Below are positions 6,831 through 7,230 of a DNA stretch of 64,000 bases, one piece after another. The DNA is from Escherichia coli (GTDB lineage: Bacteria > Pseudomonadota > Gammaproteobacteria > Enterobacterales > Enterobacteriaceae). Location of the stretch: the NCBI RefSeq assembly GCF_003334405.1, contig NZ_QOWM01000004.1. One strand, written 5' to 3'. A program made the translations under genes and the position numbers. The notes beneath the pieces are model-generated. The model searched no databases. It was not told the origin of the DNA and saw only the letters and a list, made by a program, of their open reading frames with translations. Position 1 is the stretch's first letter. Each line of letters begins with the position of its first letter.

Positions 6831-7101
6831 ATGCCACTATCGTAACAAACGCCATGTGCTTACCCTGGCGTCAAGGGTCAATACCTGCAAGAGTGCGTGA
6901 AGAGTGGAAAGGGGTCCGCATCCGCGAGCCGCAATATACGCAGGGCTGCAAGAAGATAGAGCGAGCCGCCGTTCAGGTCAACTACTGACGAACAAATCTT
7001 TTGCGAAGGGGATTGCAAATCCGACAAAAAGTGGGGTTTTTCAGACCAAAACGCGTTATGCCTGCATGAAAGCAGGAGTGAAGCGGCGTACCGCGACGCC
7101 G

Positions 7102-7230
7102 CTATTTATCGGAAGGTTTATCTTGCTGCGGTTTGTTGTTGACCATATCGCACAACATAGAGAGCAGCATTAACCGTACTTTAAAGGGAGAATGACTAAA
7201 CACGCGCATACACCTCTTGAACTCATTCAT
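7102..7230 (-). CDS. mntS: Small protein MntS (42 aa; formerly the rybA locus)
   Basis: Minus-strand ATG at 7228-7230 translates to MNEFKRCMRVFSHSPFKVRLMLLSMLCDMVNNKPQQDKPSDK, stop at 7102-7104; too short for the ORF track; divergent from mntR. Confidence 0.85.
   Translation of the reverse strand: MNEFKRCMRVFSHSPFKVRLMLLSMLCDMVNNKPQQDKPSDK

Follow-up and report, generated by a model that had tools for sequence, protein, structure and literature searches.

The small Escherichia coli protein MntS is encoded on the RybA transcript, which was first found as a small RNA (sRNA) candidate (PMC4361602). The mntS gene is repressed by MntR-Mn (PMC4361602; PMC9806134), and its product binds and inhibits the MntP manganese exporter (bioRxiv 10.1101/2023.06.02.543501). 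Chromosomally tagged MntS was detected on manganese limitation, and frameshifts placed at Phe11 or Phe16 abolished the associated manganese-sensitivity phenotype, for which Hfq was unnecessary (PMC4361602). Targeted mass spectrometry recovered the MntS peptide VFSHSPFKVR only in low manganese and not in a delta-mntS strain, and the protein reaches ~6000 copies per cell in low manganese (PMC12529367). The signal peptide of MntR-associated SitA proteins has been proposed as the ancestor of MntS (Wright et al. 2023/2024). A role for the RNA itself has also been put forward: as related in PMC4361602 and PMC11878033, Gerstle et al. 2012 reported that RybA represses aroF and aroL under peroxide stress. 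RybA resembles the dual-function sRNA/mRNAs of the SgrS/SgrT type in being short, in having been first described as an sRNA and in encoding a small protein (PMC4361602), but differs from them in that base-pairing by RybA rests on one report and its manganese phenotype needs the protein and not Hfq.

We examined a window of 64,000 nucleotides of E. coli DNA (contig NZ_QOWM01000004.1), in which an 89-aa open reading frame, here called ORF89, lies antisense to a 42-aa frame. The genes and open frames concerned are the following.

5247-6830, minus strand: opgE (ybiP), co-directional with and downstream of mntS (ORF listing and RefSeq)
6904-7173, plus strand: ORF89, 89 aa, GTG start (ORF listing)
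7102-7230, minus strand: mntS coding sequence, 42 aa, ATG to TAG (ORF listing and RefSeq)
7416-7883, plus strand: mntR, manganese-responsive repressor gene, divergent from mntS (ORF listing and RefSeq)
7880-8998, plus strand: ybiR (RefSeq, K-12-type record)

The gene in the window is the mntS of E. coli K-12 (formerly the RybA ORF; NF033226 / PF26599), and no difference was found between the two. The protein, given as MNEFKRCMRVFSHSPFKVRLMLLSMLCDMVNNKPQQDKPSDK in the ORF listing, is identical in its amino acids to WP_001001761.1, labelled 'manganase accumulation protein MntS' in RefSeq, and the position between opgE and mntR, the MntR-box palindromes, the Shine-Dalgarno sequence and the length of 42 aa are also the same. 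Over the 621 nt around mntS (window 6800-7420), identity to K-12-type E. coli chromosomes is 100%, and the gene order in the K-12-type record is opgE - mntS - mntR - ybiR. This segment was matched in 5,422 of 5,426 complete E. coli genomes, at 5,455 places in all, and among the 12 rows listed RefSeq annotates opgE and mntS beneath the match in every one and mntR in 11. Two of the 5,455 matching places belong to records labelled as plasmids and not chromosomes.

The original prediction placed mntS antisense within ORF89 and held that the short frame is real and the longer one probably an artefact. Its coordinates, strands and lengths for both frames agree exactly with the ORF listing, but mntS is not nested: the overlap is partial and spans 72 nt (7102-7173), equal to 56% of mntS and 27% of ORF89, and mntS reaches 57 nt past the ORF89 stop. 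Codon boundaries coincide exactly in the two frames, and the ORF89 stop TAA (7171-7173) is the complement of the Leu20 TTA codon of mntS. The default minimum of the ORF lister is 60 aa, and MntS with its 42 aa therefore falls below it. The central judgement of the original prediction, that mntS is real and ORF89 probably an artefact, is upheld by NCBIfam/RefSeq identity, conservation, pN/pS and the published MntS experiments, all of which agree. Among those experiments, the frameshifts at Phe11 or Phe16 were introduced into a plasmid limited to the mntS ORF and its Shine-Dalgarno; the active plasmid of this design, pLW112, is therefore without the 198 nt of ORF89 outside mntS (PMC4361602). We consider it close to certain that this is the known mntS/rybA locus of E. 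coli and that ORF89 is a chance by-product of it.

MntS matches the NCBIfam equivalog NF033226 (small_MntS) with 96 bits against a cutoff of 36 (E 6.3e-28). Among 5.8 billion proteins, 136 homologues at E <= 0.001 were recovered, named MntS by their sources and labelled as Escherichia, Shigella, Citrobacter, Salmonella, Klebsiella, Enterobacter, Kosakonia, Kluyvera, Trabulsiella and Silvania. A local Pfam-A scan returned no family for MntS, even at E <= 10, and the homologues carry precomputed PF26599.1; the local library is presumably older than PF26599 and so missed MntS, and because it seems to be without that family the Pfam-A result is uninformative. An alignment of 20 diverse family members has 18 invariant columns, all of which are present in the MntS of the window, together with the family length of 41-43 aa and the N-terminal core MNEFKRC...VFSHSPFKVRLML. 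The context likewise appears to be that of the family, with mntS adjoining mntR divergently and MntR-box-like palindromes in its putative promoter.

Conservation and codon-substitution analysis of both frames had been named in the original prediction among the means of checking it, and both came out in its favor. The comparative set was built from one genome per species (GTDB) and comprised 80 loci, in which mntS was intact, at 41-43 aa, in 80 of 80, and the 89-aa form of ORF89 was absent from 80 of 80. Within E. coli, the MntS accession is the same in all eight records whose annotation was compared, and the lone substitution inside mntS among the genomes sampled, at site 7123, is synonymous for MntS. 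The substitution test used 78 distinct sequences and the gap-free first 36 codons of mntS (108 nt), with pooled Nei-Gojobori estimates, and gave a pN/pS of 0.185 for mntS versus 1.13 for ORF89 within the following results.

mntS codon position 1: 18 of 36 sites variable, mean entropy 0.35
mntS codon position 2: 10 of 36 sites variable, mean entropy 0.16
mntS codon position 3: 31 of 36 sites variable, mean entropy 0.73
pN/pS, mntS frame: 0.185, the lowest of six frames
pN/pS, ORF89 frame: 1.13 over 108 nt
pN/pS, other four frames: 0.35, 1.32, 2.74 and 3.05

This pattern across the frames indicates that selection acts on the mntS frame, which is under purifying selection as judged from its pN/pS, its third-position variability and its invariant Shine-Dalgarno sequence. 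In the part overlapped by ORF89 (mntS codons 20-36), pN/pS is 0.26 for mntS versus 0.76 for ORF89. No purifying selection was found in the ORF89 frame over the 80-locus set, either across the 108 nt or in the overlap, and the fastest evolution in this frame falls at its own codon position 1. Outside mntS, nine of the ten sites in 6904-7101 that vary within E. coli lie at ORF89 codon positions 1 or 2.

The sequences that flank mntS were compared over the same 80 loci, with identity expressed as mean identity to the E. coli base in the 80-sequence alignment. The segments and the signals within them are listed below.

7285-7330: promoter/operator block of mntS, identity 0.94
mntS 5' UTR: identity 0.73
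mntS coding sequence: identity 0.82
7082-7103: hairpin, identity 0.97
7000-7081: identity 0.55
6904-6999: identity 0.68
7235-7240, minus strand: Shine-Dalgarno AGGAGG of mntS, 4 nt before the ATG
7283-7340, minus strand: near-invariant mntS promoter/operator block (80-sequence alignment)
7291-7304, no strand assigned: MntR-box-like palindrome ATAGCACAGGCTAT, operator 1 (inverted repeat, exact match to ATAGCN4GCTAT)
7310-7323, no strand assigned: second MntR-box-like half-palindrome ATAGCTATTGCTAA, operator 2 (inverted repeat, one mismatch, conserved across species)
7082-7103, minus strand: hairpin AGCGGCGU-CGCGGU-ACGCCGCU, 8 bp, G+C-rich, overlapping the mntS stop codon

Every base of the Shine-Dalgarno AGGAGG is at least 95% identical across the 80 sequences. 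The near-invariant block contains two -10-like hexamers by sequence reading, TATAAT (7310-7305) and TATATC (7294-7289), and a consensus promoter scan did not call a minus-strand promoter at 7283-7340. The palindromes at 7291-7304 and 7310-7323 are putative MntR operators, an assignment that draws on the published repression of mntS by MntR and on what we take to be the MntR box consensus. The hairpin at 7082-7103 is an inverted repeat with 100% complementarity, is present in both the minimum-free-energy and the centroid folds, and is more conserved (97%, n=80) than the mntS coding sequence. A terminator scan of 6700-7500 on both strands called none, and no T-run follows the hairpin, which we infer to be a candidate 3'-end or stabilizing structure of a short RybA/mntS transcript. 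The hairpin is invariant and so offers no covariation, and the fold z-score of the mntS 3' region is -1.27. One database variant of MntS (P0128, 75 aa) looks as if the 21-nt hairpin and the stop had been deleted, which fuses MntS in frame with the downstream sequence.

Signals of this kind are scarce for ORF89. A consensus scan of 6700-6904 called nothing promoter-like on the plus strand, which is weak evidence, and by sequence reading no good Shine-Dalgarno precedes the GTG, only a GAAGA/AGAG purine patch. The conserved patches beneath ORF89 are blocky and lack three-base periodicity. A promoter scan placed one element there on the opposite strand, with its hexamers in conserved blocks.

6953-6981, minus strand: promoter-like TTGACC-17 nt-TATCTT inside ORF89

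Judged from position only, this element is probably the opgE promoter. The opgE 5' region beyond it (6831-6903, minus strand) is 80% conserved across genera and has a stem-loop-like block, CGCCAGGGTAAGCACATGGCG; a 20-codon ATG ORF, MAFVTIVAYEFNPQRIACYP, at 6793-6855 (minus strand) overlaps the opgE start. The block or the 20-codon ORF could be a leader or regulatory element.

In the comparison with the 80 loci, the ORF89 frame over mntS is 89 aa long only in the window. Within Escherichia, E. albertii has a frame of 60 aa, the representative E. coli one of 31 aa, and two further species have frames of 29 and 31 aa; beyond Escherichia the length and boundaries of the frame are unrelated. The Escherichia alignment contains indels of 1 or 2 nt at ~6905-6909 and ~7049-7068, in addition to point changes, and the short frames in the other Escherichia are due to these 1-2-nt indels. 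Within the species, we drew 12 E. coli genomes at regular intervals from the ranked list of 5,422. Six of them keep ORF89 at 89 aa (five identical to the window, one with N29Y), and the remaining six have frames of 35, 35, 119, 31, 31 and 31 aa; in five of these six the GTG start is gone through T6905G. The stop-to-stop frame is still open in several E. coli even where the GTG is missing, and all 12 have the same C-terminal 31 residues. Conservation of the 89-aa form past its immediate lineage was thus not found, this form being absent from 80 of 80 species and from six of the 12 E. coli.

The database record for ORF89 is similarly thin. It has no NCBIfam and no Pfam match, and no plus-strand feature is annotated at 6904-7173 in the nine records with feature tables examined. 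Only seven relatives were found among 5.8 billion proteins, and all but one share 90% identity or more with the query; five of the seven come from JGI, and four of those five are named 'hypothetical protein'. These relatives have the C-terminus in common and differ in their N-termini, a pattern typical of upstream frameshifts. On 48 contigs ORF89 has been annotated by the JGI pipeline as a 'hypothetical protein' (database proteins P0121-P0127). In one of these proteins (P0127, 154 aa, on a 1.9-kb contig) the ORF89 C-terminus follows an HTH N-terminus of the LysR type, a combination suggestive of rearrangement or misassembly.

To evaluate the length of ORF89 against chance, the 585-nt region between opgE and mntR was shuffled 5000 times with its dinucleotides preserved. 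The longest ORF per shuffle was 70 aa on average, and ORFs of at least 89 aa occurred in 16.6% of the shuffles and of at least 42 aa in 97.5%. Of the 120 window ORFs that reach 89 aa, 55 are for the most part contained in a longer one. From the shuffles and the window ORF counts it follows that length supports neither mntS nor ORF89, and the case for mntS is therefore one of conservation and published experiments. Codon usage was scored by contrasting real genes with their in-register antisense frames, and the log-odds, in bits per codon, were +0.30 for ORF89, +0.32 for mntS and +0.29 for mntR. With scores so nearly equal, composition alone fails to reject ORF89, and since ORF89 and mntS score alike we dropped codon usage as a criterion for ORFs this short or intergenic.

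Shadow ORFs, that is, open frames lying antisense and in register opposite genes, are a general phenomenon. In-register antisense stops can arise only from sense TTA, CTA and TCA codons, and mntS has one of these, the TTA of Leu20. Together these three codons make up 2.4% of the sense codons in the long genes of the window, versus 4.7% expected for three random triplets, and this under-use leads to longer in-register antisense ORFs, with open runs averaging ~42 codons. ORF89 resembles a shadow ORF in that its 3' third is the in-register complement of mntS and ends at the TTA. It departs from that pattern in that two thirds of its length face non-coding DNA and not coding sequence, so that it is partly an ordinary intergenic chance ORF.

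Our account of the locus combines the published regulation with this geometry. According to the mechanism published for the identical protein, MntR leaves its operator in low manganese, the minus-strand RybA of ~205-400 nt is synthesized, and the 42-aa MntS is translated from it. On the plus strand, the last 24 codons of ORF89 complement, in register, the stretch of mntS from codon 20 to codon 42 and the stop. The first 66 codons cross the opgE promoter-like region and the DNA 3' of mntS, where the K-12 lineage by chance has a GTG and no in-frame stops. ORF89 looks like a chance, non-coding ORF specific to a strain lineage, its translation being excluded only indirectly.

A different account is that ORF89, or its C-terminal 31-35 codons read from ATG 7066 or GTG 7078, is a young lineage-restricted antisense gene translated alongside mntS. 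Consistent with such a gene are a frame that runs open through 89 codons in the window and persists from stop to stop in several E. coli, its gene-like codon-usage score, the identity of the C-terminal 31 residues in all sampled E. coli, and the fact that some pipelines call it. The C-terminal conservation, however, is fully explained as the complement of mntS coding sequence and of an invariant hairpin, and the 89-aa form is missing from all 80 other species. In this frame pN/pS is 1.13 (108 nt) and 0.76 in the overlap, with the fast site at its own codon position 1; the GTG is lost in five of 12 E. coli, and other Escherichia carry frame-shifting indels. The lack of an upstream plus-strand promoter-like site, of a good Shine-Dalgarno and of a family match also counts against it. 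We consider an antisense gene of this kind very improbable, and the same slight chance is given to its most specific form, a very young antisense micro-gene in K-12-like E. coli whose plus strand is transcribed and whose sequence is held in place through selection acting on mntS and the hairpin. If true, ORF89 would be a natural case of a gene born de novo opposite an existing gene for a small protein.

The remaining alternative concerns the minus strand and treats the locus as mainly one for a non-coding regulatory RybA with an incidental mntS frame or, in a weaker version, as a dual-function mRNA and base-pairing sRNA. The initial description of RybA as an sRNA candidate and the single study of aroF/aroL repression under peroxide stress, as later articles relate it, point in this direction, as does the conservation of the post-stop hairpin and parts of the 3' region beyond the needs of a plain UTR. 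The strong, RNA-only version is refuted by the published frameshift alleles, the independence from Hfq and the detection of MntS protein, and it stands against the codon-periodic substitutions and the pN/pS of 0.185 in the mntS frame. A scan of 6000-8200 (E <= 1) returned no Rfam match for the mntS/rybA region, and as RybA has no Rfam family this null result says nothing on the RNA. We rate this alternative as very improbable; RybA may have a dual function, and this does not conflict with the explanation of the locus as the known mntS gene opposite a chance ORF.

MntS itself has been described before, as have its repression by MntR, its inhibition of MntP and its suggested derivation from a SitA signal peptide, and the locus is nothing biologically new. 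Its value is that of a calibration case for genome scanning, in which an ORF track cut by length hides a real 42-aa regulator already characterized by experiment and displays a longer, meaningless antisense ORF. The choice between mntS and ORF89 was settled by cross-species ORF integrity, indel phase and pN/pS, and not by length or codon usage.

The proposed ancestry of MntS was also approached through sequence searches. The published link between MntS and SitA needed iterated searches (Wright et al. 2023/2024). A single-pass search of 1.84 billion representatives with our MntS profile yielded 34 clusters, none longer than 138 aa and none a full-length SitA. One of these clusters, a 50-aa protein (P0152, FSHSPFRLRLML..., then AQA), is an MntS-like peptide with 37% identity over 35 aa. 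In its locus (L088, Logan SRR18067521 contig, 1230-5011) it is divergent from an mntR-like gene and directly precedes a ZnuA-family sitA followed by sitBCD. Only a frameshift in an A9 run parts it from the mature SitA frame, and A7 or A10 in place of A9 would yield ...KEKKFKVVTTFTV; the frameshift may reflect an assembly error, a pseudogene or slippage. The 16-mer TATAGCCTGTGCTATA occurs exactly both in the mntR-sitA intergenic region of this contig and in the E. coli mntS promoter, where it is the core of operator 1.

Thus a SitA signal peptide and MntS are alike in that the MntS-like peptide of this contig heads sitABCD beside a divergent mntR-like gene and shares TATAGCCTGTGCTATA, but E. 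coli MntS differs in having neither an AXA cleavage motif nor a mature SitA domain. These observations agree with the published SitA origin, with the link recovered only indirectly. The possibility that the DNA downstream of mntS is a decayed sitA was examined by tblastn of the restored SitA from this contig against 6831-7330. Only the signal-peptide/MntS part matched (E 7.5e-8; all others E > 1), and a sitA remnant under ORF89 is rejected or is at least undetectable.

Three further observations concern the regulatory surroundings of mntS and mntR. In E. coli AHB29 (L089 3016-5515), a prophage with an integrase, a CI repressor and a CII-family regulator lies between mntS and mntR. Its junction at ~7311-7314 falls at the second MntR box, so that the first MntR box and TATAAT stay beside mntS and the upstream promoter DNA is replaced. 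Other genomes may have similar mntS-mntR splits, as there are 33 more matching places than records (5,455 vs 5,422). On the other side of the divergent pair, the mntR stop and the ybiR start overlap as ATGA at 7880-7883, which suggests possible translational coupling of the two genes. Elsewhere in the window, at 3194-3207, ~50 nt ahead of the start codon of dps (2641-3144, minus strand), there is a perfect MntR-box-like palindrome, ATAGCACCGGCTAT, that overlaps a TATACT -10-like hexamer. We take this palindrome to be the MntR site of the dps promoter, where Yamamoto et al. (2011) reportedly described an MntR site.
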